64,000 bases of DNA, from assembly GCA_963721805.1 (NCBI GenBank), contig CAVRJY010000002.1, positions 5,067-69,066 of the forward strand. Reading direction: 5' to 3'. The position numbers and the translations under genes are program-made. The notes below the pieces were generated by a model. It did no database searches. It was given only the letters and a program-made list of their open reading frames with translations, and had not been told where the DNA came from. The DNA is from Nitrospirota bacterium (GTDB taxonomy: Bacteria; Nitrospirota; Thermodesulfovibrionia; Thermodesulfovibrionales; JdFR-86). Positions 8,911 to 62,871 of the stretch are shown here, piece by piece. The first letter of the stretch is position 1. Each line of letters opens with the position of its first letter.

Positions 8911-9510
8911 TTAATCTCCTAACATTAATTTGAGCCGTTTTTTGGGATTGTCGAATCTCACGTTTTTTGCATCGAAATATTCGGGTTTGAAATCACCGTC
9001 AGCCCATTCAATATATTCCTGATAGTGTTCATTCTCAGGATCCATTATTGCTTCAATGAATTCTTCGTATCCCCAAATTCCGCCACAATCTTCAGGAGGA
9101 CATGCTCTCTCACCTCCGATACAGATAGGATATTTAACCTTAGGTTCCCTTGGCATAATCTTTTCCAGAACTATCGAGTGATTCCAGTTGTCGCCAAAGT
9201 CGTAAATATAATTTGCCCGTTTATGCTTATCGTTGAAGTATTCAACTATTTTATGCTCCCAGCCGGGTAGAACTTCTCTATCATCCCATTCCTCAGCAGG
9301 TATCCCGATCTCCTCTTTCTTTCGTGATTTTGGATTTATAATCTCGAAATTATGAAGATGAGAATCCGTCCATCCCATGCTATTTTGTATCGCTACGTGC
9401 AGGTCCCAGAACGTATAATCTTCAGGAACGATTATTCGACGCCAGATAGGGGGTTTGCTTCCAGTGAGGGTTATCTTGAACTGAAACACATTTTCATATT
9501 TCTTGGGCAT
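8911..9510 (-). CDS. Plasmid pRiA4b ORF-3-like family protein
   Basis: FQFKITLTGSKPPIWRRIIVPEDYTFWDLHVAIQNSMGWTDSHLHNFEI is the family signature. I prefer the MPKKYENV start at 9510 because an AGGAGG lies 8 nt upstream. Confidence 0.7.
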   Translation of the reverse strand: MPKKYENVFQFKITLTGSKPPIWRRIIVPEDYTFWDLHVAIQNSMGWTDSHLHNFEIINPKSRKKEEIGIPAEEWDDREVLPGWEHKIVEYFNDKHKRANYIYDFGDNWNHSIVLEKIMPREPKVKYPICIGGERACPPEDCGGIWGYEEFIEAIMDPENEHYQEYIEWADGDFKPEYFDAKNVRFDNPKKRLKLMLGD

Positions 9511-9578
9511 CCCGGCACCCCTCCTGATTTTGTCTGAATATAGCATATGATCTTATGGATGCTCAAGATATTTTCTAT

Positions 9579-11567: not shown

Positions 11568-11859
11568 GGTTAGAACCCCATGTGAAAAGGTTAGAAGTAA
11601 ACTCGCCTGAAATTGCTTAAAATCAGCCGTTATTCGACAAAGGTTAGAAAGTTAGAAGGTTAGAAGTTAGACGCACATATATACCATATATAGAGAATAA
11701 TATACGGAGTACGGCTAAAGACAAAACACTTCAACATCACTTAAAGAATATATATATTACTTCTAACCTTCTAACTTTCTAACTACTAGCCTTATCTTCT
11801 TGTTTTTATTGCATTATTATGGTTAGAACTCGGTTAGAACTCGCTTGACCATTCTAACC
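11568..11859. repeat. Putative replication origin: GGTTAGAA iterons in both orientations around an AT-rich core
   Basis: GGTTAGAA occurs at 11568, 11589, 11642, 11658, 11821 and 11832, with AGTTAGAA at 11650. Inverted copies TTCTAAC(C/T) occur at 11761, 11769, 11777 and 11852. An AT-rich spacer spans 11673-11760. The whole region lies directly downstream of the 3' end (11908) of the PrimPol-helicase gene, between it and the RHH genes. Confidence 0.6.
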
Positions 11860-11907: not shown

Positions 11908-14900
11908 TTAGAACTCGATATCACCCAAACTCTCAATACGCTTTTCCCCATCGTCAGTAGGATTAATGCGACTGAGATCAACGTGGACATTATATCTTGA
12001 GGGAGTTTCAACACGTTCCTTCTCATAAAGAAGGACTTCAGTTATCGCAGACAATTTAATCGCATAGCAGTAAATGGATTCGCTCATGATCTTTACAGAT
12101 TTACCATTGCCCTTTTTATTTTTAACCAGCCAACCACGATCCTCAAAAGTTCTAATCATTGATTCACCGTCGAATCCGTCGTCTTTAAGGATTCTCATGA
12201 AAACCGATTTCGTGAATGCAATATATCCCTCATCCCATTTTCCAGACCATCCGCTATGAGGGACAACTGGACTGTTATTCCCATAAGAGCTTGCAGCATG
12301 TTTACCCCAAAATGTGGTCTGATTAGAAACCGCCCAGCTATATAGAGCTTCAAGAGCTTTAACCGTCATATCGCGTTTTTCATTATTGATAGATTTATCC
12401 CATATGACATCAACCAGACGATCCTTATCAATAAACCGAAGCTCTGGGATAGCTTCATGTATCAGAGAGATGGCCATGCTCAAGAGGGTAATGTATTCCG
12501 ACAACCTGATAGCTACTGGATCATCACCTGCACGGGCACTGAAGATATTTTGTTCCTGACGATAGAGATCAACCCATTTTGACCAGTTTTGCTTATTCGC
12601 CATTATATATTCGATCCACCTGTAACCGACATGACCATAGTTCTGCATGAGGAGCTGTTTGATTTGATTGACCTTGGTTGCCGTGATGTTATTTGTAGCA
12701 CTAAATGGCGATCCCCATAGAGACAGGACCCGACCACGTTGCCCACCATCTTGCGTGACATTTACAATCGGACTCTCACCGTTGGTTAAGAGCACTGTTC
12801 TCCAGGAGCCTCTATTTCCTAATCCTTTAATGCTTCCTCTGCCTTTGCCAACACCGCTACAGATTAAATAGATAACCCTGCTAAGTAGGGTATTTCCAGC
12901 GTCTCGGGCATTTCCTGTTCCTGCGAGTTTCGTATCATCCATATACATTGGCAAATCATTCAGTAAGGATGCAGTTCTTTCGACGTTAACTCTGGTGGTC
13001 TCCCATGACCGTACAAGTGAGCTAGATGAGCGATTATCTGGATTCCCCCAAGTCGAAGCTCCAAGGGCAAGAGTCGTGGTCTTACCAGTCGATGTTGTAT
13101 TGCAATAATCAACGATGAAGTTCTGTACTTCAAGGATTTTAAGTAGCGGGGGTAATAGGGAAAAGTATATAGATGAAACAGCAACAGGATAATCAGATGC
13201 CAACTTCACAGCTTTTAGCCATTGGTTGAAGTCACCCTTAGTCTTAAATCCCTTAGCAATCTGATCATTACCTTGGTCATCGGCGCTGAAGGAAACTTGT
13301 CCAGTTGAACTCGAATCAGAATAATATCGATCACCACATAGGAATCCATCTGAATCACCCTGCCAGCCGAGAAATGAGCTGACCTTTGCTTCCGGTATGA
13401 CCTTATAGTTCACATTGTCATAAGCGGCCAGGTATTCAACCACAGATTTTGCATTGATACTGTTTATTGGTAGCCCATGGCCTGAAAGCTCCACAATCTT
13501 TTTTGTATCAGCTATTTTATGCTTTTCGAGTATTTGATCACTTGGTTTGCCGTCTCTTATCCAGCAGAGCTTAATGGATTCCATTCCTGAGTTAACGTCC
13601 GTGTACCTCTCGGTTAGAAACACGGGGATAGGGAGAATCTCAGCCTCATACCATTGCTCTTCTTTCTTGTCCCAAAGAACCTTTGATATGACACCCTTAC
13701 CAGATATCGACCATCCAGCAGGAATGACCGCAGATGCATCCACAGGGGCCTTAGGGACGATATTCTGTACAGCTTGACCAATACCTAGGGTGCGATCAAT
13801 TCGATGAAATAGACCCGCTGGAGATTTAACCTTACAGGATTCCAGACACTTAAACCCTTTCTCCTTAATGTGCTTGCATGTATGCGGTTTTGTGTCTTGA
13901 AGTGAATGCCGGATTTTCCTGTCCGTTTCAGCCTTATTGTAGTTCGGATGTCCCTTTGAGAATTCATGACAGAGTTCTTCTCCATTGGGGGATAGACATG
14001 CAATATTAGAAACCATAGCGTACCAGAGAGGTTCAGAGAGACTGGCCTGATTTTCATATGCATGTTTAAGGAAGGCACATTTCATAAGCTCGTCAATAGT
14101 TACATTATCGGTTCGAAAAGATTTTATAGTTTCTGTCCTGACAACAATTGGAGATGTCACAGGCTTTTCTTCGTTTGCAGATAATCCCCATTCATTTATC
14201 ACTCGGTCAAGATCAGCTTCAGTGGCGTACTTTATAGTAGACAGAATCTCAACTTGATCAGCATACGCTGTTTTGAATCCACTGTCAGGATCGAGAATAA
14301 CCGTGTGATCTCCTTGCATTGCTATCCCTTGAAATGGAAGAGCTATCAGATTTCCTATGCTATCTGGATCGCTGTGCTTGTCTTGAGTTGGGAAGAATTT
14401 ATCAAATGATGAGTTTATGACATCATCACCTATGACCTGAGCTTCCTTCAATAATGCCATGACCACAGTCCGAGCTTTCATTGCAGGAACTGGATCCTTA
14501 AAGAAGATATAGACGTGATACCCTTTGCCAGATTTTGATCTCAACACATAACAGTCAAGATCTTGCTCATATGCCGCATAATAATACTTCTCGACATCTA
14601 AAAGAGGATTTACGGGATAGTCTTCTTTTTCATGGTCGTCAAAATCGGCAGCAATGAAATGACAGGTATTATCCTTCAGTAATGGATATACCCCATGAAT
14701 CTTTTTCCCGGCGATATGATCCTCAAGATGCTTATCAGAAAATGGAATATACGCTGTTACCTTGCAAGCACTACAAGATCCGCTCTTCATACTCATGGGG
14801 CAGACATCTTTTTTCCAGATATTCGCACATAACGGATAGTACGGTTTTCCAAATCTCTGAGCTATCACATCAGTTCGCCCTTTGAAAACTTCTTTGACCA

Positions 14901-14925
14901 ACGGCAGTAAATCACTTTTTTCCAT
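11908..14925 (-). CDS. Replication protein: archaeo-eukaryotic PrimPol domain + PriCT-like + DUF927/SF3-helicase-like ATPase (1005 aa, intact)
   Basis: FIAADFDDH (DxD) and SGKGYHVYIFF (primase-polymerase motifs); CAFLKHAYENQASLSEPLWYAMVSNIA (PriCT-like); Walker A CNTTSTGKTTT. Confidence 0.75.
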   Translation of the reverse strand: MEKSDLLPLVKEVFKGRTDVIAQRFGKPYYPLCANIWKKDVCPMSMKSGSCSACKVTAYIPFSDKHLEDHIAGKKIHGVYPLLKDNTCHFIAADFDDHEKEDYPVNPLLDVEKYYYAAYEQDLDCYVLRSKSGKGYHVYIFFKDPVPAMKARTVVMALLKEAQVIGDDVINSSFDKFFPTQDKHSDPDSIGNLIALPFQGIAMQGDHTVILDPDSGFKTAYADQVEILSTIKYATEADLDRVINEWGLSANEEKPVTSPIVVRTETIKSFRTDNVTIDELMKCAFLKHAYENQASLSEPLWYAMVSNIACLSPNGEELCHEFSKGHPNYNKAETDRKIRHSLQDTKPHTCKHIKEKGFKCLESCKVKSPAGLFHRIDRTLGIGQAVQNIVPKAPVDASAVIPAGWSISGKGVISKVLWDKKEEQWYEAEILPIPVFLTERYTDVNSGMESIKLCWIRDGKPSDQILEKHKIADTKKIVELSGHGLPINSINAKSVVEYLAAYDNVNYKVIPEAKVSSFLGWQGDSDGFLCGDRYYSDSSSTGQVSFSADDQGNDQIAKGFKTKGDFNQWLKAVKLASDYPVAVSSIYFSLLPPLLKILEVQNFIVDYCNTTSTGKTTTLALGASTWGNPDNRSSSSLVRSWETTRVNVERTASLLNDLPMYMDDTKLAGTGNARDAGNTLLSRVIYLICSGVGKGRGSIKGLGNRGSWRTVLLTNGESPIVNVTQDGGQRGRVLSLWGSPFSATNNITATKVNQIKQLLMQNYGHVGYRWIEYIMANKQNWSKWVDLYRQEQNIFSARAGDDPVAIRLSEYITLLSMAISLIHEAIPELRFIDKDRLVDVIWDKSINNEKRDMTVKALEALYSWAVSNQTTFWGKHAASSYGNNSPVVPHSGWSGKWDEGYIAFTKSVFMRILKDDGFDGESMIRTFEDRGWLVKNKKGNGKSVKIMSESIYCYAIKLSAITEVLLYEKERVETPSRYNVHVDLSRINPTDDGEKRIESLGDIEF

Positions 14926-18479: not shown

Positions 18480-19817
18480 ATGCGAGCAGTGAGATTAGAG
18501 AATTCATTAGTAGTGCCAGTATCTGAAGCCTTGACAGTATCCCAACCAGAGAGGGACAATACAAATATATCGGTCTGGGGGTTTTCATTGATAAACATAA
18601 GAGCAAAGGGCAAGTGTCCTATCTGTAATAAGGCGTTCAAGGCGGACAAGAAATTTGGCTTTTTCTGTCCAGAGCATATGACTACGCCACAACGCTTCCA
18701 GATTGATTTCAGATATAAGAGTGAAAGGATACGAAGAGAAACCACGTTCGATGGGCGTCCCTTAAAATCTTTTGCTGAAGCATATGCATTGCTAAAGCAA
18801 GCTGAGAATGAAATCGCAGCACATAGGTTTGATCCTTCAAGGTGGTCCAGTAAGGAACGTTTTGAGTTTCGATTTGACAACCTTATTATGCGCTGGTATC
18901 AGGAGAAGGAAATCCTTATGAAGCAAGGGAAACTTGCTCCATCATATGTCCCAAAATTGATGACTTACATAAAACATTATTTCATGCCCGAGTTTGCATT
19001 GAAAGATGCTCGTGAAATAACCTCGGTAGATATCAAGGGATTTTACCTTACCCTTCCTGCAAAGGGATTGAAGGGGATACTTTCATTGAAATACCAAAAG
19101 AATGTTATGAATGCCCTTGAGGGTTTCTTTAACTGGCTACATGATCTTGATGTTATTGTTCAAATGCCTAAGTTCCAAAGGATTGAAGTGCCAGAACACG
19201 AGCCTATATTGATATCATCTCAGGAGCAAGCAATGATCATGGCCTATATACCTGCGGAGCATAAACCGATCTTTGCATTCCTATTTAATCAGGGGTGCAG
19301 ACCATCTGAAGTTAGAGCATTAAAGTGGATTGACATTGATCTCGTTAATGATCTGGTTACAATCAGAAGAACGTTCTCAGCTCATACATTGGTAAACCAC
19401 ACAAAAACCAAGAAGATTCGCCCAAATTATCTGTTCCCTGAAACGAAGGCACATCTCCCTGTACTTCCCGGACCAATTGAGTGGTGCAAAGACAGGTTTG
19501 TTTTTACGCACGGTAAAACCATGATAAGACCATATTCTGATAATCTAATCCATAAGATATATAACACAGCACTAGACGCACTTGAGCAAGCAACTGGAAT
19601 CAAAATAGACTCGCCACTTTATGAGGCAACGAAGTATAGTTTTGGGACGAACATGGTTAACGATTTTGATGTCCCAACTGATGTGGTTCAGGTGCATTAT
19701 GGACATACGTCTAAGGCTATGACACAGCGGTATGCGAAGCTAAATGCAGCTGCTGCACTGAAGAAGGCGGTCACCAAACGGTCACCAACCCCTCTGGACA
19801 CCGCTGCAAACGACTGA
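18480..19817 (+). CDS. Tyrosine recombinase / phage-type integrase with N-terminal Cys-rich segment
   Basis: C-terminal catalytic region ..GCRPSEVRALKW.. and VVQVHYGHTSKAMTQRYAKL (H-x-x-R..Y). CPICNKAF..FFCPEH lies near the N-terminus. The exact start is uncertain. Confidence 0.85.
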   Translation: MRAVRLENSLVVPVSEALTVSQPERDNTNISVWGFSLINIRAKGKCPICNKAFKADKKFGFFCPEHMTTPQRFQIDFRYKSERIRRETTFDGRPLKSFAEAYALLKQAENEIAAHRFDPSRWSSKERFEFRFDNLIMRWYQEKEILMKQGKLAPSYVPKLMTYIKHYFMPEFALKDAREITSVDIKGFYLTLPAKGLKGILSLKYQKNVMNALEGFFNWLHDLDVIVQMPKFQRIEVPEHEPILISSQEQAMIMAYIPAEHKPIFAFLFNQGCRPSEVRALKWIDIDLVNDLVTIRRTFSAHTLVNHTKTKKIRPNYLFPETKAHLPVLPGPIEWCKDRFVFTHGKTMIRPYSDNLIHKIYNTALDALEQATGIKIDSPLYEATKYSFGTNMVNDFDVPTDVVQVHYGHTSKAMTQRYAKLNAAAALKKAVTKRSPTPLDTAAND

Positions 19818-29457: not shown

Positions 29458-30726
29458 TCAAACGCTCCACTTACAAATTTTATCCTCTACTATTTTCTTC
29501 TTGGTCGCATATCGTTCTCTAGATACGCGCACAATCTTTTCAGCGTTCATTTCGGTGCCTGATAGGTCTTCAGGCGGCAAGGTGCAGGCAGAAAACGCAT
29601 CCCTTGCAACACCATCAATCATGAGGCGCAGGTAAATATGATATTGGGGTAGGTTGCAGAAATGATCGGCCTCGAATGTGTGTCCTAACTCTTCCTCCAA
29701 GATGGCAGCGTCTCTTGCTCCGACACGGAATGATATGATCGTCCCGCAATTTCCGAATATTGCGTTTCGTACCTTCTCGTCGATCTGTTCGATGTACTGA
29801 TTTGCTAGAATCAAATTCAGACGGTACTTTCTTGCCTCAGATAGGATGTTAGCAAATGACTCTGTCGCAAAGTTTTGGAATTCATCGACGTACAGATAGA
29901 AATCTCTTCTGTCCTTTTCAGTCGTATCCACCCTGGTCATTGCTGCAAGCTGTATCTTTGTAACCAGAAGCGCTCCGAGAAGTGCTGAATTATCCTCTCC
30001 GATTCTCCCCTTGCTTAAATTCACAATCAAGATTTTCTGGTTATCCATTACCTCGCGGACATCAAAAGAAGACTTGCTTTGACCGAGGATATTTCTCATG
30101 ATTGAACTTGAAAGGAATTGCCCGACCTTGTTTTGGATCGGTGCGATTGCCTCGCCTCTTAGCTTCTCTGGGTAGCCCGCGAACTCCTTTGTCCAGAAAT
30201 TGCGCACTACGGGGTCATCGATGTCCTTAGTCTGCTGCTTTCGGTATCCTTCATCGGCAAGAATTCTCAGAACCCCCAGAAGGGTTGAGTTGGGTATTCC
30301 AATAGGGTCAGAATCGCGTTTCTGAGTATGTGTTCAAGCCGTGGTCCCCAGCTATCGACCCAAATCTTCTTAAACACGCCGACTAAGCCCGAAGCGGTAA
30401 GATGCCGGGTAGCGGGGTTCTTGTCTATCATTACATTGAAGGCTATCGGGTATTCCTGATCTACTGGGTTGAAGTAGATGACATCGTTGATTCGATTTGA
30501 GGGAATGGCTTTCAGTAGCCGCTCGGCGGAATCACCGTGCGGGTCTATGAAGGCCACCCCGTTACCATTTCTGATATCTTGTATGGCAAGATGCTCCAGA
30601 AGGTTTGTTTTGCCCATTCCTGTTTTCCCGATAATGTACATGTGGCGTCTGCGATCATCTCTTTTGATACCAAATATTTCTCTCGTTTCGGAAATTTGTT
30701 TTTGCGAAAAATGTGATTTCTGACAT
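29458..30726 (-). pseudogene. Type IV coupling-protein-like / TraD-VirD4-type ATPase with about 2 frameshifts (~30290, ~30675)
   Basis: My cross-frame translation gives MSEITFFAKTNFRNE / EIFGIKRDDRRRHMYIIGKTGMGKTNLLEHL..FIDPHGD / LRILADEGYRK..FYLYVDEFQNFATESFANILSEARKYRLNLILANQY. Confidence 0.65.
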
Positions 30727-30780
30727 ATGTGTTTTTCTTACGGTTTAAAAAGCCCTTTGTTAGGGCCTTCATTGGCCTTG

Positions 30781-30815
30781 AAAAAAGCCCCCTCCTTCTT
30801 TGAAGACGAGGGGGC
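30781..30815 (-). terminator. Rho-independent terminator after the primase-like gene
   Basis: On the minus strand, GCCCCCTC-(13 nt)-GAGGGGGC is followed by TTTTTT. Confidence 0.6.
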
Positions 30816-30915
30816 AAGGGTAAAGAGCTATTTGTTTTGTGTGAAAGACTCGCTTCTCTCAGTATCCTGAAGTACATCTGAAGATTCTTCAGGGCCTGGA
30901 AAGGCGATTTCTTCC

Positions 30916-31628
30916 TCATGATCTCTTAAGGCGGATTGAGATCATCAGGAACTTGTTCATGAGCTTGAAGTGCTCCTGTGACAGATAGGGCAGTCCGAAA
31001 TTACAGACTGCCTGGTGCCCGGAGTCCCATAGCTTGAGGCAGTCGAACATGTCGGTCGTAAAGTAGACCTCCTTGTCGGGCTCAATGCGGTCGTAATACA
31101 GGAGATAGAGTTCGGGGTTAAAGGAATGGTGGAAAACGTGTTTTCCGTCCTTTATCCTTATCCCGTAGTATGCTATCTTCTTTTCGTTCGTCCGTGACGG
31201 TAAAGGAGATGGTGCCGGACAGCATGGTTTTCCCCTTGGGCTTTCCCAACGCCGAACATCTGCAGGTTTCCTGGGATATGCCCATGTTGCTTAAGGTTCT
31301 TGTCGAACTCCAGCTCGTAGGTCAGCGTGAGCTGCTTGGTTATCTTTCCACCGGTGAAGCATGCCTTTTCTTCGAGCAGTTTCTTGGCCGTGTCCCAGTC
31401 ACATTGCGAAATCGCCATGACCAGTGAGATGATGTGGCCGCTTCCTTTGCACTCAGGGCAGTACCAGAGGTTCTTTTTCTCTCCGTAGGCCTTTATGACG
31501 GCCTGTTTCCCGCACTTGTGGCATGGATACCTAATATAGGCTCCATGCTGGCTACCGTCAATCTGAAGAAGCTTGAGGGCCTTGCTCGTATCAACGGCGC
31601 AAAGCGTGTTAGCGTAATTCATGCACAA
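30916..31628 (-). pseudogene. CHC2 zinc-finger / Toprim-like primase-family protein with about 2 frameshifts at homopolymer runs (~31233, ~31180)
   Basis: YPCHKCGKQ..WYCPECKGSGHIISLV is a zinc finger. The tail reads, in other frames, KGKTMLSGTISFTVTDERKE and KIAYYGIRIKDGKHVFHHSFNPELYLLYYDRIEPDKEVYFTTDMFDCLKLW. Confidence 0.5.
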
Positions 31629-41295: not shown

Positions 41296-41652
<357 letters not shown>

Positions 41653-43068: not shown

Positions 43069-43107
43069 GGGGGTGGAGCGACGTGCTCCATCCCCGCTTA
43101 CTTTTTT
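43069..43107 (+). terminator. amtB terminator hairpin + T-run
   Basis: GGGGGTGGAGC-gacg-TGCTCCATCCCC, then ..CTTTTTT. The T-run merges into the first bases of the cassette arm. Confidence 0.55.
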
Positions 43108-43285
43108 CAAAGCGCGCCAAATCGCTTGATACGTCGTTGGGCTTCAAAGACTCGCCCTCTATGTACGCCCAAGTACACCATCGGGCGGTCTTCTCGCCCT
43201 GCCTTGTCTGAAGACGATTTGGGCGCGCTTTCGGGGGTTAATAGCTGCTACGCAGATGGACCCCCGCGCCCCCGTGGTCAACGGC
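43106..43285 (+). repeat. E1 left arm (hairpin 1 ~43109-43240, hairpin 2 ~43241-43270, terminal GGTCAACGGC 43276-43285)
   Basis: AAAGCGCGCCAAATCG pairs with CGATTTGGGCGCGCTTT. The apex is TGTAC-gcccaa-GTACA. Then comes CGGGGG-(23 nt)-CCCCCG. Confidence 0.7.
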
Positions 43286-43325
43286 ATGATTAGAGATATT
43301 GCATTTGCTTATGATAGGTGTGCTA

Positions 43326-44348
43326 TCAATTAGTTAGTTTTGAGCTAATCCCACTTAAATACTCAAGCGCGCTGTCTTCATCGTATATTACCTTTGTCCC
43401 ATATATTTCATGAAGGGCTAATGGTTTATCGCATATCCAATGTGCAAGGCTTGTTTCAGTTAGAAAGGCATCACAATAGGGTAAAGCCCATTGAGCATGA
43501 GAAATATCTGTCAGGTCGTTTGGCTTAAATCGCTGGCTTTTGTTATATCTAAATAACGCATGGATACTTGCGCCAATATGAATCCAAGGCAATTCCTTGT
43601 TAATCTTCTTTTGATCGAAGGCAGCGTAAATGAATAGTCGCGTTTGTTTAACTAACTCAGTTCGAACTGTTTCATCCCATGAAGGTGCATGGCCTGTATT
43701 CTTAGCATCAAGAAATTCCCAGACCCCATCGATGTCGTCTTTGAGAACATCCAAGCTTCCTGTAATCTCTAGCATGAATACTTCGTGAAATGTTTTCCAA
43801 TCTTGGTTTTCATCCTTTCCGTGATTCAGTCTTGCTATTAAATCTTCTGAATTTTTAGTGTGAAATTCTCCAGAAATATCCTCAGTTTTTCTCCATACAT
43901 ACTTTGCCGGGGTATATGGTTGATTGCCTTTAACTTTACTCTCACTATTACGAATAAACAAGATGAGTTCTTGTCCAGCAATACTCAGCGGTGATAAGAA
44001 AGTTATCTGTTGGCTTAGTTCGTCCATCACTTTTGCGATCTGAAGCTTTCCTTGCTCATTACCGTAATTAATTAAATCTTTATGCACATGGGGGCTAAGA
44101 GGACAAATTGCAATATTTGAGCGGACGAGCATTTTCAATATATTGAAGATGTCTACTTGCCTAGGAGATGCCTTGCCAATTGAAGCATTGCTCATATTAA
44201 TCCAATAGTTGGTATCAAGGTAAATCCTATGCTTCTTGAGCATTTCTTCTCCAAGTTCGATTTTTGATTGCTCATAAAGTTCTTCATTATGCATAGAAAC
44301 TATTTTAAACCTTTGTGCAGAATTATTCTCTTGAAACCATGCGGACAC
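43326..44348 (-). CDS. E1 cargo: hypothetical protein (322-340 aa), AT-rich
   Basis: Long ORF. The start is ambiguous (GTG at 44348 or ATG at 44294). YLDTNYWI near the N-terminus and PYCDAFLTETS near the C-terminus are loosely PIN-like. No firm family assignment. Confidence 0.55.
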   Translation of the reverse strand: MSAWFQENNSAQRFKIVSMHNEELYEQSKIELGEEMLKKHRIYLDTNYWINMSNASIGKASPRQVDIFNILKMLVRSNIAICPLSPHVHKDLINYGNEQGKLQIAKVMDELSQQITFLSPLSIAGQELILFIRNSESKVKGNQPYTPAKYVWRKTEDISGEFHTKNSEDLIARLNHGKDENQDWKTFHEVFMLEITGSLDVLKDDIDGVWEFLDAKNTGHAPSWDETVRTELVKQTRLFIYAAFDQKKINKELPWIHIGASIHALFRYNKSQRFKPNDLTDISHAQWALPYCDAFLTETSLAHWICDKPLALHEIYGTKVIYDEDSALEYLSGISSKLTN

Positions 44349-44440
44349 TCATGAGCAATAAAGCAATTCCATCTTGTGTCCGAAGCTGGCACACAATCAC
44401 AAGATACGCCCCCATACCACAACACCCCGGAACTGGTCAA

Positions 44441-44470
44441 TGGGAACTGGTTCCTAGGAACCAGTTCCCA
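44441..44470. promoter_or_regulatory. 30-bp perfect palindrome TGGGAACTGGTTCCTAGGAACCAGTTCCCA with flanking half-sites, upstream of the E1 cargo gene
   Basis: I verified that the reverse complement is identical. Extra half-sites GGAACTGGT (44429-44437) and GGAAGCGGTTCCC (44471-44483) flank it. It lies ~95-120 nt upstream of the cargo start on the minus strand. Confidence 0.55.
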
Positions 44471-44570
44471 GGAAGCGGTTCCCATGGACGCGTTCCGCCT
44501 TTTCGTTCTATCATCGCGCATGAAGTATATAGCAGATATATTAACGGGACGGAAAACCGGGCGGCCACAT

Positions 44571-44711
44571 GAAAAACGTTTCTGAACGCATGAACACAGG
44601 GGTAGCTAAAAAGCGATGAAATCCGCGAGGTTGAGATGCGTTTTGTTTTTTCATTTGAACGCCCTAAAAAAATACGCGCGGCCGCGCGCGATAACTATGT
44701 ATATAACTAAG
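44571..44711. other. Conserved internal module of the cassettes (E1 copy)
   Basis: Shares these blocks with 61359-61498: GAAAACGTTTCTGAACGCATGAACA, CGATGAAATCCGC, TTCATTTGAACGC, an A-run plus GC palindrome, and TATGTATATAACTAAG. Confidence 0.6.
44666..44690 (-). terminator. Minus-strand intrinsic terminator inside the E1 module
   Basis: The minus strand reads CGCGCGCGGCCGCGCG followed by TATTTTTTT. Confidence 0.55.
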
Positions 44712-44885
44712 CCGTTGACCTTGTGGGGCGCGGGGGGCGTCCTTCATCCGTGCCCCCCGAAAGCGCGCCCAAATCGTCTTCAGACAAGGCAGGGCGAGAA
44801 GACCGCCCGATGGTGTACTGTGACGTACATGGAGGGCGAGTCTTTGATGCCCAACGACGTATCAAGCGATTTGGCGCGCTTTGAA
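44711..44885 (-). repeat. E1 right arm (inverted copy of left arm)
   Basis: The reverse complement aligns with 43106-43285. The stems are conserved, but the apex loop (gtcaca versus gcccaa) and the hairpin-2 loop differ. Confidence 0.7.
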
Positions 44886-44898
44886 GAAGGATAGTTTG

Positions 44899-46248
44899 CT
44901 AAACCAAAAGGTAGTATCTCACCCAGACGTACAGGGTAGATACCCCGACCGTCAGTATCATGATCGGCATGCCTATGGACATGAAGCGCAGGAACGACAC
45001 CTTCCGCCCTGCGCGTTCCGCCATCTCCAGCACTATCACGTTTGCGGACGCGCCGATAGCCGTCCCGTTTCCGCCGAGGCAGGCCCCAAGCGCGAGCGAC
45101 CACCATACGGGCATCAGTTCGTGGTGCTGCAGGAGCTGGACCCCGCTCAAGTTCGGCCAGAGCTGCCTGCCTATGTCCACTATGAGCGGGTTCATCGTCG
45201 CCACATAAGGGATGTTGTCGATGAACGCCGAGGCGAAGGCCGAAAACCACATCACGACCATCGAGGTCGCGAGCATCCGGCCGTGCGTGATGTCCAGGAC
45301 CCTTATGGCGAGCCAGTTTATGAGCCCGACCTTCACGACCGCGCCTACGATGATGAAAAGCCCGATGAAGAAAAATATCGTCGGCCACTCGACCTCGGCG
45401 AATACCGCGTGCAGGTTCTCGGGCCGCGACAGGAGCAGGAGCGCCCCGGCCCCCGCAAGCGCAACGGTCGCGGGCTGCAGGTGCAGTGTCCCGTGCAGGA
45501 CGAAGCCGACCAGCACGACCGCGAGCACGCACAGGGACTTGGTGAGCATCACCGGATCGGTAATCGCCTCGCGCTCGTCCATCGCCATCACGCGCGCCTT
45601 GAGCGCGTCCGTGGCCCGCAGCTTCCGGCCCCAGATCAGCCTTATCGCGCCGAGATAGCTGATCATTACCAGCGCTATCGCGGGCGTGAGGTGAATGATG
45701 AAGTCCATGAAGTCCAGATGCGCCTTAGACGCGATCATTATGTTCGGCGGGTCGCCGATGAGCGTGGCGGTGCCGCCTATGTTCGAGGCCAGCGCGCACG
45801 AGATCAGAAACGGCACGGGGTCGAGCTCCAGCGCGTCGGCGATGAGCATGGTCACCGGCCCGATCAGGAGCACGGTGGTCACGTTGTCGAGGACGGCGCT
45901 CAGTATGGCGGTGACTATCGAGAACGCGGCCAGTATGCGGAATGGCTCGCCCCGGCCCCACTTCGCGCTCTTTATCGCGATGTACTCAAACAGCCCGGTC
46001 GGCCGCGTCAGGTTCACGATGATCATCATCGAGATCAGCAGGCATATGACGTTCCAGTCCACGCCGAGCTCCTCGGTGTGGAACGCGTCGTGCTGGTCGA
46101 GCACGCGCAGCACGAGCAGCACCGCCGCGCCGAGTATCGCGACCGTGGTCTTGTGGAGCTTCTCAGAGACGATCAGCGCATAGGCGAGCGCGAACACCCC
46201 GGCCGCGATCCAGAACTGCGCGCTGAACGCGGGATCGACCGGGATCAT
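44899..46248 (-). CDS. ArsB/NhaD-superfamily (CitMHS-like) anion/ion permease
   Basis: 449 aa polytopic protein. I recognise the family from the overall pattern (..FALAYALIVSEKLHKTTVAILGAAVLLV.. ..GGTATLIGDPPNIMI..). Confidence 0.7.
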   Translation of the reverse strand: MIPVDPAFSAQFWIAAGVFALAYALIVSEKLHKTTVAILGAAVLLVLRVLDQHDAFHTEELGVDWNVICLLISMMIIVNLTRPTGLFEYIAIKSAKWGRGEPFRILAAFSIVTAILSAVLDNVTTVLLIGPVTMLIADALELDPVPFLISCALASNIGGTATLIGDPPNIMIASKAHLDFMDFIIHLTPAIALVMISYLGAIRLIWGRKLRATDALKARVMAMDEREAITDPVMLTKSLCVLAVVLVGFVLHGTLHLQPATVALAGAGALLLLSRPENLHAVFAEVEWPTIFFFIGLFIIVGAVVKVGLINWLAIRVLDITHGRMLATSMVVMWFSAFASAFIDNIPYVATMNPLIVDIGRQLWPNLSGVQLLQHHELMPVWWSLALGACLGGNGTAIGASANVIVLEMAERAGRKVSFLRFMSIGMPIMILTVGVSTLYVWVRYYLLV

Positions 46249-46395: not shown

Positions 46396-46734
<339 letters not shown>

Positions 46735-46747
46735 TTATCCGGTCCTC

Positions 46748-48389
46748 CTATCTGTGTGTGTGGCGCGTCTGGAAGTCAGGGTATGCGGTGACGCCCACCT
46801 CGGCCTGGTCCAGACCTTCGATTTCGACCTCTTCAGGGACCCTGAGCTTGATGAACTTGTCGAGGACCTTGAAGAAGACGTATGAGATCGCAAATACGTA
46901 TACGAAGTTCGTCAGCGTGCCTATGCACTGGGCCGCGAACTGCGAGGCGTCACCATAGAACAGGCCCTTGACCGTGCCGGCCACGCCGTTGAAGCCGTCG
47001 CCGTAGGTGCCGTCCGCGAAGAGGCCCAGGGAGAGCACGCCCCATGCGCCGTTTACGCCGTGCACTGAAAACGCGCCTACCGGATCGTCGACTTTGAGCG
47101 TGCGCTCGACGAAGAACACCGAGATGATGACGAGTATGCCCGCTATCGCGCCGATCAGCACCGCCGAGGGCGCGGTGACGAAAGCGCACGGAGCGGTGAT
47201 CGCGACGAGCCCGGCCAGCATGCCGTTGCACATCATGCTGATGTCAGGCTTGCCGTAGCGAGCCCACATGAAGATCATCGAGGAGAACGCGCCGGCGGCC
47301 GAGGCGAGCATCGTGTTGGTCGCGATGACGCCGATGCGGAGGTCGCCGCCCGCGAGCGTCGAGCCCGCATTGAAACCGAACCAGCCGAAGGCCAGTATGA
47401 ACGTGCCGACGACGGCCATCGGGATGTGGTGGCCGGGGATCGCGAAGATCTTGCCGTCCTTATACTTGCCGATCCTGGGGCCGAGCACTATCGCGCCGGC
47501 GAGGGCCGCGACGCCGCCGGTCATGTGCACGACGGACGATCCGGCGAAGTCCACGTGGCCGTGGCCGAGGCCGAAGTTCGTGCCGAGCTGCGGAGAGGAA
47601 CCCGCCGCCCCATACCCAGTTGGCGAAGAGCGGGTAGATAACCGCTCCGACGAATATGCCGTATATGATGAAGCTCTTGAAGCTCCAGCGCTCGGCCATC
47701 GAGCCGGTCGGGATCGTCGCTGTCGTGTCCATGAAGACCATCTGGAACAGGAAGAGCGCGAAGACCGAGGCGTCATACGTCACGCCCGAGAGGAAAAATC
47801 CCCTCATCCCGAACAGGCCCATGTCGTGGCCGAACAGGTGAAGCGTGAACTCGTGGTTGAGTACGCCTGCGCCACCGAGCGAGGCCACGCCGCCCACGCC
47901 TCCCATCTGGAGCGCGAAGCCGCATATCCAGTAGCCGAGCATGCCCAAGCCGTACACCATGAAGTTCATGGCCATCGTGTGGCCCGCGTTCTTGGCCTGC
48001 GTGAAACCGGCCTCGACCATCGCGAAGCCTGCCTGCATGAACATGACCAGGAACCCGGCGACCAGCGTCCAGACCATGTTGATAGCTATCCTGTTGTGGC
48101 CGATGACGTCCGCGAGCTTCGTGGCCAGGGGCTCGGCCTTCGAGAGCGCCGCCATGTCCTCCTTGCTCGGGGCGCCGGAGGTCGCGCCTATCACGTCCGC
48201 GGCGCCGCCTGTGTTCGCGCCCGAGGGATCAGGCTTCGGCTCTTCAGCGGCAGCCGCAGGAGCCGCCGGAGCGGTCGTGGCCGTGGCGTTGACTGCCGCA
48301 GGCGCAACTGCGGCTTCGTCGGCATACGCCAGATATGCCGAGCCCGCTATCATTACAATCATCATCAGTGCCATCAACAACCGCTTCAT
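46748..48389 (-). pseudogene. Second ammonium transporter, split by one frameshift near 47600
   Basis: The N-terminal piece (47460..48389) ends ..PLFANWVWGGGFLS. The continuation QLGTNFGLGHGHVDFAGSSVVHMTGG.. is in the frame of 46748..47776. Confidence 0.75.
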
Positions 48390-57875: not shown

Positions 57876-58751
57876 TTGGGGATAAGGCAAGGGGAGGGCG
57901 CATTGACGCCAAATCTTACGATAGGCGAGGTCAAGATAACGTGGCTGCACGGCGGGGTATTCGAGCTCGACGGCGGGACGATGTTCGGCCCGGTGCCGCG
58001 CGTGCTCTGGGAAAAACGCTTCGCCTACCACGGGGACAACTACATAAGCCTGCTTAACCACCCGATGCTCGTGCGCGCCCCATGGGGTACAGCGATAATC
58101 GACACCGGCCTGGGCAACAAGCTCACCGAGAAGCAAAAAAAGATATTCCGCGTGACCGAGGACTGGCGGCTGCTGGAATCGCTCGCGGAGCAGGGCGTCA
58201 GCCGCGATCAGATAGACTTCGTGGTGCTCACCCACCTCGATTACGACCACGCCGGGGGCGTGGTGATGCATAACCAAGAAGGCGTGGCGGAGCTCACGTT
58301 CCCGCGCGCGCAGCACATTGTGCAGCGTGCGGAGTGGGAGGATGCGATATCGCCTAATAAGCGCGCCGCGCACTCCTACTGGAAGCGGAACTTTGATGGG
58401 CTGGTAGCGGGTGAGAACCTCTTGCTCGCTGAAGGCCCGCACGAGGTGATGGAGGGGTTGGCCGTGTTCCCGACCGGGGGCCACACGCGCGGGCATCAGG
58501 CCGTGGTCATATCCTCCGGCGGGCAGAAGGCGGTGCACCTGGCCGACCTGCTGCCCACGCACGCGCACTTTAACCCGCTCTGGGTTACGTCATACGACAA
58601 CTTCCCTCTCGATGCGGTCGAGCGCAAGGAGCAGTTCGAAAAACTCTTCGTCTCTCAGGGCGCGTGGTTTCTCTTCTACCACGACCCGTTCATGGCCGCG
58701 TGCCGCTTCGACCCCAGGGGCGAGGTCATCGAGAAACTTGACTGGCGCTGA
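57876..58751 (+). CDS. MBL-fold metallo-hydrolase
   Basis: [11 protein letters not shown] (HxHxDH-type motif variant) and ..GGHTRGH... Confidence 0.75.
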
Positions 58752-60226
58752 TGCCTAAGAAAGCCGTCATCGTCGGCGCGGGCCCGGCCGGGCTCACCGC
58801 CGCGTATGAACTGCTCACCAGGACCGATATCGTCCCGACGGTGCTTGAGGCCTCCGAAGACATCGGCGGCATCTCGAAGACCGTCCATTACAAGGGCAAC
58901 CGCATCGACATCGGAGGGCACCGCTTCTTCTCGAAGTCCGAGCGAGTCATGCGCTGGTGGGCCGACGTATTCCCGATAGAGGCCGCGCCGGAGCCGGACC
59001 CCAAGCACACCGACAAGGTCATGCTGCGGCGAGACCGCCTCTCGCGGATATTCTTCCTCGGGAAGTTCTTCCCGTACCCGATCCGGCTGACTCTGGACGT
59101 GATGCGCAAGCTGGGCGCGCTTCGTGCATTTAAGATATGCCTGAGCTACCTCATGGTCCGCCTCAGGCCGATCAGGCCCGAGCGGTCGCTCGAGGACTTC
59201 TTCATCAACCGCTTCGGACGCGAGCTGTACCTCACGTTTTTTAAGGGCTACACCGAGAAGGTCTGGGGCGCGCCGTGCGCCGAGATCTCGCCCGAGTGGG
59301 GCGCTCAGAGGATCAAGGGCCTCTCGGTAGGGCGGGCGGTCAGCCACGCGATAAGGCAGTCGCTTGGGGGTGGGCAGCCGGCCGTTGAGACGAGCCTGAT
59401 CGAGAATTTTTTGTACCCCAAGCTCGGGCCGGGCCAGCTCTGGGAGGAGGTCGCGGCGCGGGTGCAGCAGCGCGGGGGCAAGGTGATAACGGGCGCGGAG
59501 GTGGTGGGCGTCGAGACCTCGGGCAGGCGCGTGACTGCTGTCACGGCCAAAGACCGGCAGACGGGCGGGCTTCAGCGCCATGAGGCGGACTGGTTCTTCT
59601 CGACCATGCCGGTGCGCGAACTTGTCGCGGCGATGGGCGAGGCGGTGCCGCAAGATGTGAGGGACGCGGCTGCGGGCCTGCAATACCGCGATTTCATGAC
59701 CGTGGGGCTGCTGCTTAAAAAGCTCAAGACTCCGGTGCCGGACAACTGGATATACGTCCAGGAGCGCGGGGTCAGGATCGGGAGGCTACAGGTCTTCAAT
59801 AACTGGAGCCCGTGGCTCGTAGCCGACCCGGAAGGCACGGTATGGCTGGGGCTTGAGTACTTCTGCACCGAGGGGGACGGGATGTGGTCGATGCCTGACG
59901 ACGAGTTCGCGCGGTTCGCGATAGGCGAGCTTGCCTCGATCGGGCTGATCGATCCAGCCGACGTCCTCGACCATAAGGTGCTTCGCGTGCCCAAGGCATA
60001 TCCGGCATACATCGGCGGGTACGATAGATTCGGCGTGGTCAGGCGATACCTCGACGGACTCGAAAACCTCTTCCTGATCGGCCGAAACGGGATGCACCGG
60101 TATAACAATATGGACCACTCGATGCTGACCGCGATGGCCGCGGTCGAAAACATCATCGCTGGGCGCACTGACAAGACCAATATATGGGCGATCAACGCTG
60201 AGGACGACTATCACGAGGGTTCATGA
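58751..60226 (+). CDS. NAD(P)/FAD-dependent oxidoreductase (amine-oxidase / UDP-galactopyranose-mutase-like fold)
   Basis: [16 protein letters not shown] dinucleotide-binding motif; 491 aa. Its stop TGA (60224-60226) lies in the first bases of cassette E2. Confidence 0.75.
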
Positions 60227-60395
60227 AAGCGCTCCAAATCGCTTGATACTGCGTCACGCCTCGCAGCCCGATCCTCAACGTATGTCCATATACGCCTCCG
60301 GTCGGTCTGCTCGCCGCTCCTTGTCTGAAGACGATTTGGGCGCGCTTTCGGGGGAGAGAATAACGTAGCCCCCCGCGCCCCACGAGGTCAACGGC
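60224..60395 (+). repeat. E2 left arm
   Basis: Shares AAAGCGC(T)CCAAATCGCTTGATAC and CCTTGTCTGAAGACGATTTGGGCGCGCTTTCGGGGG..CCCCCGCGCCCC..GGTCAACGGC with the E1 arms. The apex is CGTAT-gtccat-ATACG. Confidence 0.65.
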
Positions 60396-60458
60396 TTATA
60401 TTAAGAGCATCATGACCGTTGCCCCTGCCGCACATGGAATGGAAGGGAATTCAGTCGA

Positions 60459-61019
60459 TTAATCCTCAGCTCTCCATGCGATAAGGTCTAAGTGTATTCG
60501 ATGATTAAAACTGTATTCATTTTTTGCCATATCTGTTGCAACTGACTGATAATTATCGTTTGTTACCTTATTTATTGCAGTTATCGTAGTCCATTTAGTG
60601 TTCTTATTATGGGAATCTAATTTTTTACCAACATAGCTATCTAAAGGGACTTCAAGGAACGGCATTAAATGGCTCAACTGATATTTTTCATATATGAATC
60701 GATTATAACAAGCGTTGCGCATAAATATATTTAAACATTTTCGCGCTATACCCCAAAGCGCAGTCTTTTCCTTAGAGTGATCTATGATTAAATATAATTT
60801 GTCAACCAAATTCTTTGTATGCTCGTCTATTATGTTTGAGTAATCCGCTTCATTCATAATCAACCTGAATTGATTGAAATCCATTCCGCCCAGATATTCT
60901 CTAACGCATTTACCAGTCCCCGTTGGATATCCCCTTACTGTACTAACCCCTATGGAAACGTTTGCGAGATGTTTCGTTAATGCCTTATAAAAATCAAATA
61001 CATTGGCCTTATCATTCAT
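60459..61019 (-). CDS. E2 cargo: hypothetical protein (186 aa), AT-rich
   Basis: A GGAGG RBS lies 8 nt before the ATG. I recognise no motif. Confidence 0.55.
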   Translation of the reverse strand: MNDKANVFDFYKALTKHLANVSIGVSTVRGYPTGTGKCVREYLGGMDFNQFRLIMNEADYSNIIDEHTKNLVDKLYLIIDHSKEKTALWGIARKCLNIFMRNACYNRFIYEKYQLSHLMPFLEVPLDSYVGKKLDSHNKNTKWTTITAINKVTNDNYQSVATDMAKNEYSFNHRIHLDLIAWRAED

Positions 61020-61358
61020 GTTTCATAGCCTCCACTCTGTGATTTAATATGAAACAATAAAACTGAGAGAGTTAAATGGCACCAGCCAGTTCTCATCCCG
61101 ATGTGCATCATGCTCCAAAGATACCACAACCGCTCGGAGTATACCAAACATTTTTCCGAGGGCTGCCGACGTTCATTAACCATAGTTAATCGAAAGTTAG
61201 TAGAAAACGCACGGGCATCAATTTTTCCTATCAACTTAGGTTTATATATAAACCGTAGGATATCGCTTTTTTCATTTCTTTGTGATTTAATACGGGATGA
61301 TGCTTAGATGGGTATTTTTGAGGTCGCGGAAAGCGAAGTTGGACGCCGATGGAGCGGT

Positions 61359-61498
61359 GGAAAACGTTTCTGAACGCATGAACATGGGAGTGGTCAAATT
61401 ATCGATGAAATCCGCTGGCTTGGACTGTTTTTTCTCTGTTCATTTGAACGCTCAAAAAAAATGCGCGTACGCGCGCGGTAAGTATGTATATAACTAAG
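61359..61498. other. Conserved internal module of the cassettes (E2 copy)
   Basis: Aligns block-wise with 44571-44711. It includes a minus-strand terminator (GC palindrome 61463-61477 plus T-run, 61454-61477). Confidence 0.6.
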
Positions 61499-61521
61499 GT
61501 GACGAGCGCAGGTCTAATTAA

Positions 61522-61696
61522 GCCGTTGACCACGAGGCGCGGAGGCAGCGGCTGGGCCGCGCACTTCGCAAAGCGCGATAAATCGCGTCAGGCTAGGAAC
61601 GGCGAGGAAAACGTCCGCAAGTGTACTGAGACGTACTCTGGAGGACGGATTTCCGAAGCCGTGACAACGTATCACGCGACTTTAGCGCGCTTTCAA
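61522..61696 (-). repeat. E2 right arm
   Basis: Read inward, it has AAAGCGCGCTAAAGTCGCG..CGCGATTTATCGCGCTTT, apex GTAC-gtctca-GTAC, GCGCGG..CCGCGC and GGTCAACGGC. Confidence 0.6.
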
Positions 61697-61743
61697 GAGG
61701 GCAAAGTTTGCAGCAGCTTTAGCCAAGAAGGTATAATGCGTTG

Positions 61744-62871
61744 ATGAAGAAAGCGCTGATAACGGGCATCACCGGCCAGGACGGTTCCTATCTGGCCGAG
61801 CTGCTTCTGGAGAAGGACTACGAAGTCCACGGCATGGTCCGCCGCTCCAGCATGTTCAACCGCGGCCGCATCGACCACATATACGTCGACCCGCACGCTA
61901 AGGGCGCGCACCTCTTCCTGCACTACAGCGACCTCGCGGACGCCGGCAACATCACGAGCCTGATCTACAACGTCGCGCCTGACGAGATATACCACCTCGG
62001 CGCGCAGAGCCACGTCCGCGTGAGCTTCGACGTCCCTGAGTACACGGGCGACGTGACCGGTCTCGGGACCACGCGCATACTCGACGCGATGCACAGGAGC
62101 GGCTCGAAGGCGCGGTTCTATCAGGCCTCGTCAAGCGAGATGTTCGGCGCCACACAGCCACCTCAGAACGAGAGTTCGCCGTTTTATCCGCGCAGCCCCT
62201 ATGCGGCCGCGAAGGTCTACGCCTACTGGATGACCGTCAACTACCGCGAGGCCTACGGGATGTATGCCTGTAACGGGATACTGTTTAACCACGAGAGCCC
62301 GCGCCGGGGCGAGAACTTCATCACGCGCAAGATCACGCTCTCGCTCGCGAACATACTGGCCGGCCGCGCGGAGAAGCTCTACCTCGGCAACCTCGAGGCC
62401 CGGCGCGACTGGGGCTTCGCCCCGGAGTACGTCGAGTGCCAGTGGCGCATCCTGCAGCAGGACCGCCCGGCGGATTACGTTATCGGCACAGGCGAGAGCC
62501 ACTCGGTCCGCGAGTTCCTGCTCGAGGCATTCGAGTACGCGGGGATAGGGCTTGAGCTTAAGGGCACGGGCGCGGGCATCAAGGGCGTCATAAGCTCGGT
62601 GCGCGGCGACTGCCCGCTCAAGCCCGGACACGTCGTGCTCGAGATAGACCCGAAGTTCTTCCGCCCGACCGAGGTCGACTACCTGCTTGCGGACATAACG
62701 CGTTCGCGCGAGGTTTTAGGATGGGAGCCGAAGGTCACGTTTAAGGAACTCGTGCGGATCATGGTGGACGCGGACCTCATCGGCCACGGGCTCGCTGCCC
62801 CCGGCGACGGCCAGCGCGTACTGAAGGAAAAGGGCCTCACCTGGTTTAAGGCCGACTCGACCTCCCGCTGA
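61744..62871 (+). CDS. gmd: GDP-mannose 4,6-dehydratase
   Basis: [58 protein letters not shown]. The promoter-like TTGCAG-18-TATAAT at ~61709-61738 lies just outside E2. Confidence 0.95.

Follow-up and report, generated by a model that had tools for sequence, protein, structure and literature searches.

What kind of element keeps its frame while the gene inside it changes? The question is raised by a 64,000-nt stretch of a Nitrospirota genome (contig CAVRJY010000002.1, positions 5,067 to 69,066; the window, whose numbering is used below), in which an AT-rich gene cassette of about 1.5 kb, E2, lies between two long hairpin-forming inverted arms in the gap between a FAD/NAD oxidoreductase gene and gmd. 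Whereas E2 begins at the stop codon of the oxidoreductase gene, a paralogous copy, E1, is located directly after the amtB terminator, between convergent genes (Table 1). A preliminary description had taken the two as copies of a modular scaffold with different cargo. Reading the window from 59600 to 62400, we found every feature that it listed for E2 (order, open reading frames (ORFs), boxes and arms) in place, and the cassette is real. The scaffold stands at two loci here and, in a relative, in the orthologous oxidoreductase-gmd gap, with different cargo in all three, which supports the view that the frame persists while the cargo is exchanged.

E1 and E2 are built on the same plan, as had been proposed, in the order arm, box, minus-strand AT-rich cargo, module and inverted arm. 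In both, the inverted arms of ~185 bp consist of a 125-nt hairpin (HP1), a short GC hairpin (HP2) and a box ending GGTCAACGGCTTA, and the cargo genes, unrelated to each other, each have a 143-nt non-coding module upstream; read in the direction of the cargo gene, arm and box are followed by the terminator, the conserved leader, the variable leader, the ribosome-binding site and the cargo itself. The GC content is 35% in the E2 cargo and 37-45% in its leader and module, compared with 59-60% in the arms and 63-64% in the flanking genes. The four window arms align over ~200 nt, and a profile built from the arms recovered all four at E-values of 1e-48 to 1e-63, the modules being recovered at ~1e-51; no further arm or module copy was detected by these profiles in the 64-kb window. 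Significant similarity between the interiors of E1 and E2 is a single 143-nt block with 80% identity (44570-44711 versus 61358-61498). Since the arm and module profiles match long stretches and nothing else in the window, the likeness of the two copies is not confined to short GC-rich terminator-like motifs, a weakness that the preliminary description had itself raised. Furthermore, GGTCAACGGC occurs four times in the window, solely at the inner edges of E1 and E2 (at 60386-60395 in the E2 left arm and, inverted as GCCGTTGACC, at 61522-61531 in the right arm), compared with 0.14 occurrences in shuffled sequences, none of which reached four. As handles for finding relatives of the element, we give the k-mers AACGTTTCTGAACGCATGAAC and CGATTTGGGCGCGCTTTCGG.

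A third copy was present in L010, part of a 230-kb ENA metagenome contig (ERZ25039558:contig_19384) that was found via the nearest relative of the oxidoreductase (P0044, 84% amino-acid identity). Window and L010 share their gene order across at least 12 genes, with nucleotide identities of 82.5% for the oxidoreductase gene, 86% for the Lactamase_B gene and 88% for gmd. The oxidoreductase-gmd gap of L010 contains, in order, the stop codon with AAAGCGCGCG, relB, a remnant to which the left arm is reduced, two cargo genes, a 329-nt leader and module, and GCCTTTGACC with a complete right arm. The leader and module are 84% identical to those of E2 (61172-61497 versus 13375-13702). The two cargo genes, AT-rich and on the minus strand, encode an unknown protein of 232 aa and a 212-aa protein with a GT51 transglycosylase domain (E 3e-30), and the four cargo proteins from E1, E2 and L010 are mutually unrelated by blastp. 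The idea of a shared scaffold with exchangeable cargo is thus borne out in the same gap of another genome, and the objection that no further example appears in any related genome falls. A homology of the E2 cargo to the GT51-like cargo through GxST and RK motifs was also considered and dropped (hhalign probability 0.2%).

The divergence of leader and module is close to that of the neighbouring core genes; they therefore look to have been passed on vertically after the two genomes separated, with the adjoining genes replaced in at least one lineage. On the right-hand side, similarity breaks off at 61172 between E2 and L010 and at ~61358 between E1 and E2, a difference that favours homologous or illegitimate recombination over a single fixed crossover site. 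An empty site, which the preliminary description had suggested looking for in relatives, was not found; the L010 gap is also occupied, so the insertion either predates the genome split or recurs at this site. At 11455-11870 of L010, the relB antitoxin gene (85 aa) has no intact toxin gene after it, and copies of the arm start (AAAGCGCGCGAGAAATTCGG / AAAGCGCGCGACAATTCAGG), in the form of 20-nt direct repeats, flank it on both sides.

The arms themselves are conserved as structures. HP1 has the general form of an imperfect palindrome of ~125 nt, AAAGCGCGCCAAATCG...CGATTTGGGCGCGCTTTC, and folding as DNA gave -25.5 to -33.7 kcal/mol (z -2.8 to -4.7) for all window arms. Whereas the two E1 arms show 96% complementarity across 135 nt, the E2 arms are far more diverged from each other (~57% identity), as had been noticed; they nevertheless retain their hairpins, and the E2 right arm (E2R) is the best-folding arm of all. 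In a consensus structure of five arms, including that of L010, 89% of cells are paired, and six pairs have changed on both sides, compared with 2.0 ± 1.1 in shuffles (1/500) and 1-3 in slid controls. This excess of two-sided changes indicates that the HP1 hairpin itself is under constraint and is kept through compensatory change. HP2 likewise retains its stem in five arm segments folded with ViennaRNA, with differing loops. No arm or module match to Rfam 15 was obtained at the gathering threshold across the window, nor at E<=1 on E1 or E2, and neither a solo arm nor an empty palindrome of joined left and right arms was seen in the 85 kb of readable sequence (64 kb of window and 21 kb of L010).

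On the left, the oxidoreductase TGA indeed overlaps the first bases of the arm, whose sequence starts with the A of that codon; the oxidoreductase stop codon of L010, TAA, overlaps AAAGCGCGCG likewise. The further suggestion that insertion had redefined the C-terminus of the oxidoreductase did not survive comparison with 10 homologues, all of which end 1-4 residues past an invariant YHE, as here; the alignment indicates that the C-terminus is native and that any effect of the insertion reaches no further than the stop codon and the final one or two residues. A C-terminal truncation was likewise considered and dropped, since the 50-aa length difference stems from two internal deletions. Most homologues contain two internal segments (~31 and ~11 residues) that are missing from the oxidoreductase and its closest relative; these deletions are lineage-specific and unrelated to E2.

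On the right, the inverted arm ends at 61694-61696, as the preliminary description had located it, whereas the element ends ~45 nt beyond the right hairpin, in a tail that E1, E2 and L010 have in common. The E1 copy of the tail is degenerate, with an 8-nt deletion. In E2, the tail carries TATAAT at 61732-61737; the gmd ATG (61744) follows 6 nt later, and a weak -35 element (TTGCAG) lies at an 18-nt spacing. The perfect TATAAT lies 6 nt before gmd in both genomes (window 61732-61746; L010 13920-13934), so the gmd mRNA may be leaderless or nearly so. Since the promoter scan passed over this site, whose -35 element matches at 3/6 positions, promoter function is something that we infer; if real, the tail would be the proximal promoter of a nearly leaderless gmd.

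Within the element, the module is common to E1, E2 and L010, and one of its blocks, the 16-mer TATGTATATAACTAAG, occurs exactly twice in the window (61483-61498 in E2). In both E1 and E2, the minus strand, which is the sense strand for the cargo, carries a GC stem (61463-61476 in E2) followed by a T-run that resembles an intrinsic terminator and faces inward. Alignment folding of the three module copies returned this stem as the only consistent structure; with nothing consistent beyond it in three sequences and no Rfam match, the module was dropped as a candidate structured RNA. It was also dropped as a small protein, because indels of 1-2 nt break the frame between copies and exclude a conserved ORF. 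GAAC/GTTC half-sites recur within the shared module, and the E1 leader carries a cluster of GGAAC-N2-GTTCC palindromes (44429-44482) that is specific to E1; together they suggest candidate operator sites for some regulator. At the cargo-side breakpoint of E2-L010 homology, CATTAACCATAGTTAATCG (61172-61190; L010 13375-13393) holds the palindrome TTAAC-N4-GTTAA, and on the minus strand a conserved ATG (ATGGTTAATGAA) opens a short upstream ORF whose length and sequence differ between E2 and L010. The promoter scan revealed no sigma-70 promoter for the cargo. The insert between module and right box is specific to E2, as had been described, although its size is 23-24 bp rather than 22 bp; it ends in TAAG, as does the sequence preceding it.

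The preliminary description had also proposed a 72-aa ORF coupled to the E2 cargo by an ATGA overlap. The ORF and the overlap exist, whereas a coupled gene is unsupported: in L010 the frame that starts at the same ATG runs for 24 codons and differs in sequence, the 5' third of the ORF lies in leader DNA conserved in L010 while the ORF itself is not conserved, no family match was found in Pfam, PADLOC or NCBIfam, and the GGAGG ribosome-binding site of the cargo gene itself counts against coupling. The ORF is probably not a gene.

The E2 cargo proper stands as described, an unknown protein of 186 aa that differs from the E1 cargo. It had no match in Pfam, PADLOC or NCBIfam and belongs to a large, uncharacterised family (776 cluster representatives at E<=1e-3) with the motif WG.ARK..N ... 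E.P.D and the invariant residues G90, R93, K94, N97, E123, P125, D127 and Q158. Its AlphaFold model is all-helical (pLDDT 95), with no significant fold match in the PDB or BFVD. GIARKxxN...VPLD of the cargo resembles GVGRKTAN...AVDTH of Nth, a likeness to endonuclease III at its helix-hairpin-helix region and catalytic Asp; profile support is lacking (hhalign probability 1.5%) and Foldseek matches to hOGG1 and a viral EndoIII were not significant, so that an assignment as HhH-GPD glycosylase was rejected and kept as a lead only. Family members were found beside Mom and an N6_N4 methylase in one viral contig, beside a HARE-HTH protein and a ParB-methylase in a second, and in a variable region. 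A homologue with 41% identity lies between murG and murC of the dcw cluster in one metagenome-assembled genome (L017 5001-5582; L018 3887-4468), with overlapping start and stop codons. The GT51 peptidoglycan-glycosyltransferase-like cargo of L010 has no transpeptidase (penicillin-binding protein) domain; this cargo and the murG-murC homologue may reflect a link to the cell wall, or coincidence.

For the E1 cargo, ~40 homologues at 45-50% identity were found, and in 3/3 contexts examined they lie beside type IIG or Mrr-type restriction-modification genes, without arms; homologues of the E2 cargo elsewhere are also without arms. The E1 cargo model (pLDDT 89) has a weak resemblance to PIN-like nucleases (probability 0.8, E 0.1), and its motif RIYLDTNYW is typical of the first PIN strand. 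The only Logan contig with the E1 cargo matches window 43257-44439 exactly and stops within the repeats. Taken together, the neighbourhoods and weak fold hints make the cargo look conflict-related or DNA-related.

The reading that we favour, tentatively and at rather less than an even chance, is that E2 is a lineage-restricted, non-autonomous gene carrier resembling a mobile insertion cassette (MIC), whose cargo was later replaced by recombination within the scaffold. An enzyme acting in trans would have made two or more insertions of the scaffold, and the genes inside would have been replaced afterwards when scaffold sequences (arms, leader) of a resident copy recombined with those of an incoming or paralogous one, as at the minimal-mobile-element sites of Neisseria, but with a portable scaffold. 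In this mechanism the hairpin arms and the inward terminator would insulate a foreign gene from flanking transcription, the leader would provide the expression signals of the cargo, and the tail would provide the proximal promoter of a nearly leaderless gmd.

Several observations weigh against this reading. No direct repeat indicating a target-site duplication was found at any plausible boundary of E1 or E2. No transposase matching the ends was found, the sole recombinase in the window being the tyrosine integrase of an unrelated 20-kb island, and the ORFs inside the element contain no transposase or recombinase domain by Pfam, PADLOC or NCBIfam. The right tail makes the element asymmetric, and E1 could be a copy of the E2 locus plus flank. 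The L010 right arm is nearer to the E1 arms (80% identity with the E1 right arm) than to the orthologous E2R (53-59%); as the orthologous arms are thereby less alike than their flanks, conversion among copies or arm replacement is needed. The promoter, terminator and insulator roles are putative. Finally, only three copies are known, with none in genome, metagenome, viral, plasmid or phage collections, which lack this lineage. A module 21-mer common to window and L010 had 0 exact matches in the genome, metagenome and viral contig collections; these therefore lack the lineage, and their lack of matches tells us little about how widely the element has spread among its members. An arm 20-mer had 6 matches in genome contigs, all of them chance matches of 20-22 nt in coding sequence of unrelated phyla, while an arm 21-mer in metagenome contigs and two further patterns in viral contigs had no match, nor did E2 by blastn against plasmids and phages.

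Some of the same observations would fit an immobile relic, that is, an ancient insertion, or a segmental duplication of gmd-locus DNA with its flank, whose hairpins now persist for their RNA or DNA structure (as mRNA 3' stabilisers or as insulators, similar to ERIC or Correia repeats) and whose cargo arrived by ordinary horizontal transfer into a hotspot. E1 bears a degenerate copy of the gmd-proximal tail, there is no target duplication, the hairpin is conserved through compensatory change, the arm begins exactly at a stop codon in two genomes, and the L010 left arm has decayed, with relB inserted there. We nevertheless consider a relic unlikely, as it leaves unexplained both the conservation of the AT-rich module, beyond the arms, at the two loci and the cargo boundary at the inner box in both copies, and as the 96% identity of the E1 arms implies a recent origin or ongoing conversion. 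That identity would also support homologous inversion of a segment flipped between its arms, by which cargo and module would switch expression, and long inverted repeats do surround a segment with its own leader and terminator. Inversion is nonetheless highly improbable: E2 and L010 are oriented alike even though they have diverged by ~15%, the E2 arms (57%) are too diverged for homologous inversion, no invertase was found nearby, and no outward dependence of expression is evident.

Two further explanations turn on the arms and their boxes. Dedicated site-specific exchange, in which the arms or the box GGTCAACGGCTTA would be sites for a trans-encoded recombinase with precise insertion and excision, would make the element an integron-cassette analogue with inverted sites. 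The cargo starts right after GGTCAACGGC(TTA) in E1 and E2, the box is invariant in the four window arms, the hairpin-forming arms recall folded attC sites, and the E2 insert, ending in the repeated TAAG, resembles a recombination scar. What makes such exchange improbable to us is that the right-hand breakpoints are not fixed (61172 versus ~61358), that the arms are inverted rather than direct and lack the attC core GTTRRRY, that each site holds a single cassette without arrays, and that there is no intI, the sole tyrosine recombinase (18480-19817) scoring 35 bits against an integron-integrase cutoff (TIGR02249) of 265. We give similarly little credence to an undescribed prokaryotic exchange platform defined by arms, box and module, a functional counterpart of integrons with another site architecture, in which a trans-acting recombinase from another locus of these genomes would recognise the hairpin sites and move conflict-related genes in and out of fixed docks on the chromosome. 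Alternatively, the arms could be the two parts of a palindromic host repeat akin to a miniature inverted-repeat transposable element (MITE), centred on GGTCAACGGCTTA joined to TAAGCCGTTGACC, with a foreign unit of AT-rich module, leader and cargo integrating at the centre. Hairpins or palindrome centres are known to serve as targets for several insertion sequences and introns, the arms are host-like in GC (59-63%) versus 35-45% in module, leader and cargo, and the module always adjoins the right box; against these stand the lack of an empty palindrome or solo arm in the 85 kb, the lack of an integrase encoded by the unit, and the fact that E2 and L010 share leader and module but not cargo, so that cargo moves independently of the module. 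A landing pad of this kind is accordingly doubtful.

Other features of the window lie apart from the two elements. Positions 1-20400 form an AT-rich island, with GC down to 0.30 and no tRNA gene in the window, whose genes are listed in Table 1 and which probably represents an integrative element with a defence system of the Dnd type; just downstream of its primase gene, 11643-11783 contains a perfect 25-nt inverted repeat of GTTAGAA-type short repeats, which may be an origin or iteron region. The low-GC region 29458-31628 has broken ORFs for TraG/TrwB-type coupling protein and part of a CHC2 zinc finger, and resembles what is left of a decayed conjugative element. Around E1, two PII (glnB/glnK) genes (41300-41650 and 46398-46748) form a 351-nt inverted repeat with 71% identity that brackets amtB, E1 and a CitMHS/ArsB-type permease gene. 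The two PII proteins, sought as a route to the E1-equivalent locus of the L010 genome, returned no exact record, and neither did the window's own cargo and oxidoreductase.

Table 1. Coordinates of E2, E1 and the island genes in the 64,000-nt window.
Feature	Position	Strand	Remarks
E2	60224-61737		whole element
Oxidoreductase stop codon	60224..60226	plus	TGA of the FAD/NAD oxidoreductase gene (58751-60226); overlaps first bases of left arm
E2 left arm, HP1	60225..60349		imperfect palindrome of ~125 nt, GAAAGCGCTCCAAATCG...CGATTTGGGCGCGCTTTC; DNA fold -25.5 kcal/mol, z -2.8
E2 left arm, HP2	60349..60375		short GC hairpin; G5-6 ... C5-6 stem, variable loop; folds in ViennaRNA
E2 left inner box	60374..60398		CGCGCCCCACGAGGTCAACGGCTTA; inner end of inverted repeat, ~25 bp
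Region 3' of cargo gene	60399..60458	minus	E2-specific; no similarity to E1 or L010
E2 cargo gene	60459..61019	minus	186 aa, 35% GC
72-aa ORF	61016..61234	minus	TTG start; ATGA overlap with cargo start; probably not a gene
E2-specific leader	61020..61171	minus	GGAGG 9 nt before cargo ATG
Leader common to E2 and L010	61172..61351	minus	84% identity; starts at CATTAACCATAGTTAATCG
Core non-coding module	61352..61498	minus	common to E1, E2 and L010; blocks GGAAAACGTTTCTGAACGCATGAAC, GTTCATTTGAACGC, TATGTATATAACTAAG split by variable spacers
E2-only insert	61499..61521/2		GTGACGAGCGCAGGTCTAATTAA; between module and right box, 23-24 bp
E2 right inner box	61519..61543		TAAGCCGTTGACCACGAGGCGCG; left box inverted
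E2 right arm, HP2'	61542..61569		short GC hairpin
E2 right arm, HP1'	61570..61694		~57% identity to other arms, yet folds; -33.7 kcal/mol, z -4.5
Right tail common to E1, E2 and L010	61695..61737	plus	AAGARGG.A.AGTTTGC...CCAARAAGGTAKWAT
E1, paralogous copy	43103-44920		arms 43103-43298 and 44698-44893; outer arm end 44893
E1 cargo	43326-44291/44348	minus	
E1 module	44570-44711		
E1 degenerate tail	to ~44920		
Island: DndB fragment	2763-3347		
Island: DndD-like AAA/SMC protein	4707-6527		
Island: PRiA4_ORF3	8911-9546		
Island: AEP-primase/DUF927/Cch-HTH protein	11908-14925		1005 aa
Island: tyrosine integrase	18480-19817		

Were the scaffold to serve as a reusable docking site for foreign genes, an uncultured lineage would have in it a compact means of keeping and exchanging conflict-related genes. 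The two uncharacterised protein families with high-confidence structure models are candidates for defence or DNA-modification functions. With three copies in one lineage so far, the wider significance is unproven.

Finally, we compared the element with known systems. It resembles MICs in having passenger gene(s) between terminal inverted repeats, no internal transposase, and more than one copy with different cargo. It differs from them in its ends of ~185 bp with two hairpins and a box, compared with insertion-sequence-type repeats of 20-50 bp in MICs, in having no target-site duplication and no known parental insertion sequence or transposase, and in its conserved internal non-coding module and asymmetric right tail. 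Similar to the minimal mobile elements of Neisseria (as defined in PMC3898611), the same conserved gene pair, here the oxidoreductase gene and gmd, holds different whole-gene cassettes across genomes, the flanks of window and L010 being conserved (82-88%) and their cargo unrelated. Variable breakpoints fit recombination; here, however, the variable genes lie inside a dedicated scaffold that is repeated at a second, unrelated locus (E1), and the homologous exchange is a deduction.

Among small palindromic repeats (ERIC, Correia/CREE, REPIN and MITEs), the likeness lies in the HP1 imperfect palindrome of ~125 bp with inverted feet of 17-20 bp, in the intergenic position next to a stop codon or terminator and, for Correia/CREE, in an adjacent tail with a promoter-like -10 element such as CREE ends can carry. 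Unlike these repeats, no solo copies were seen here, the only arms in the 85 kb being cassette-associated and always an inverted pair around a gene with conserved inner segments; no RAYT or insertion-sequence partner was found, the cargo proteins have no Y1_Tnp or other Pfam match, and there is no similarity to any Rfam family. Integron cassettes share promoterless-looking accessory genes bounded by foldable imperfect palindromes, and modular cargo. By comparison, the sites here are inverted and without RYYYAAC/GTTRRRY cores (the inner box reads GCCGTTGACC and the feet AAAGCGCGCC), and neither arrays nor intI or attI are present. The architecture of ~185-bp two-hairpin ends, conserved inward terminator and leader, and outward promoter-like tail is thus unlike catalogued insertion sequences, MITEs and integrons, and the element is best filed as a transposase-less passenger-gene cassette with hotspot exchange, so far confined to one uncultured lineage.

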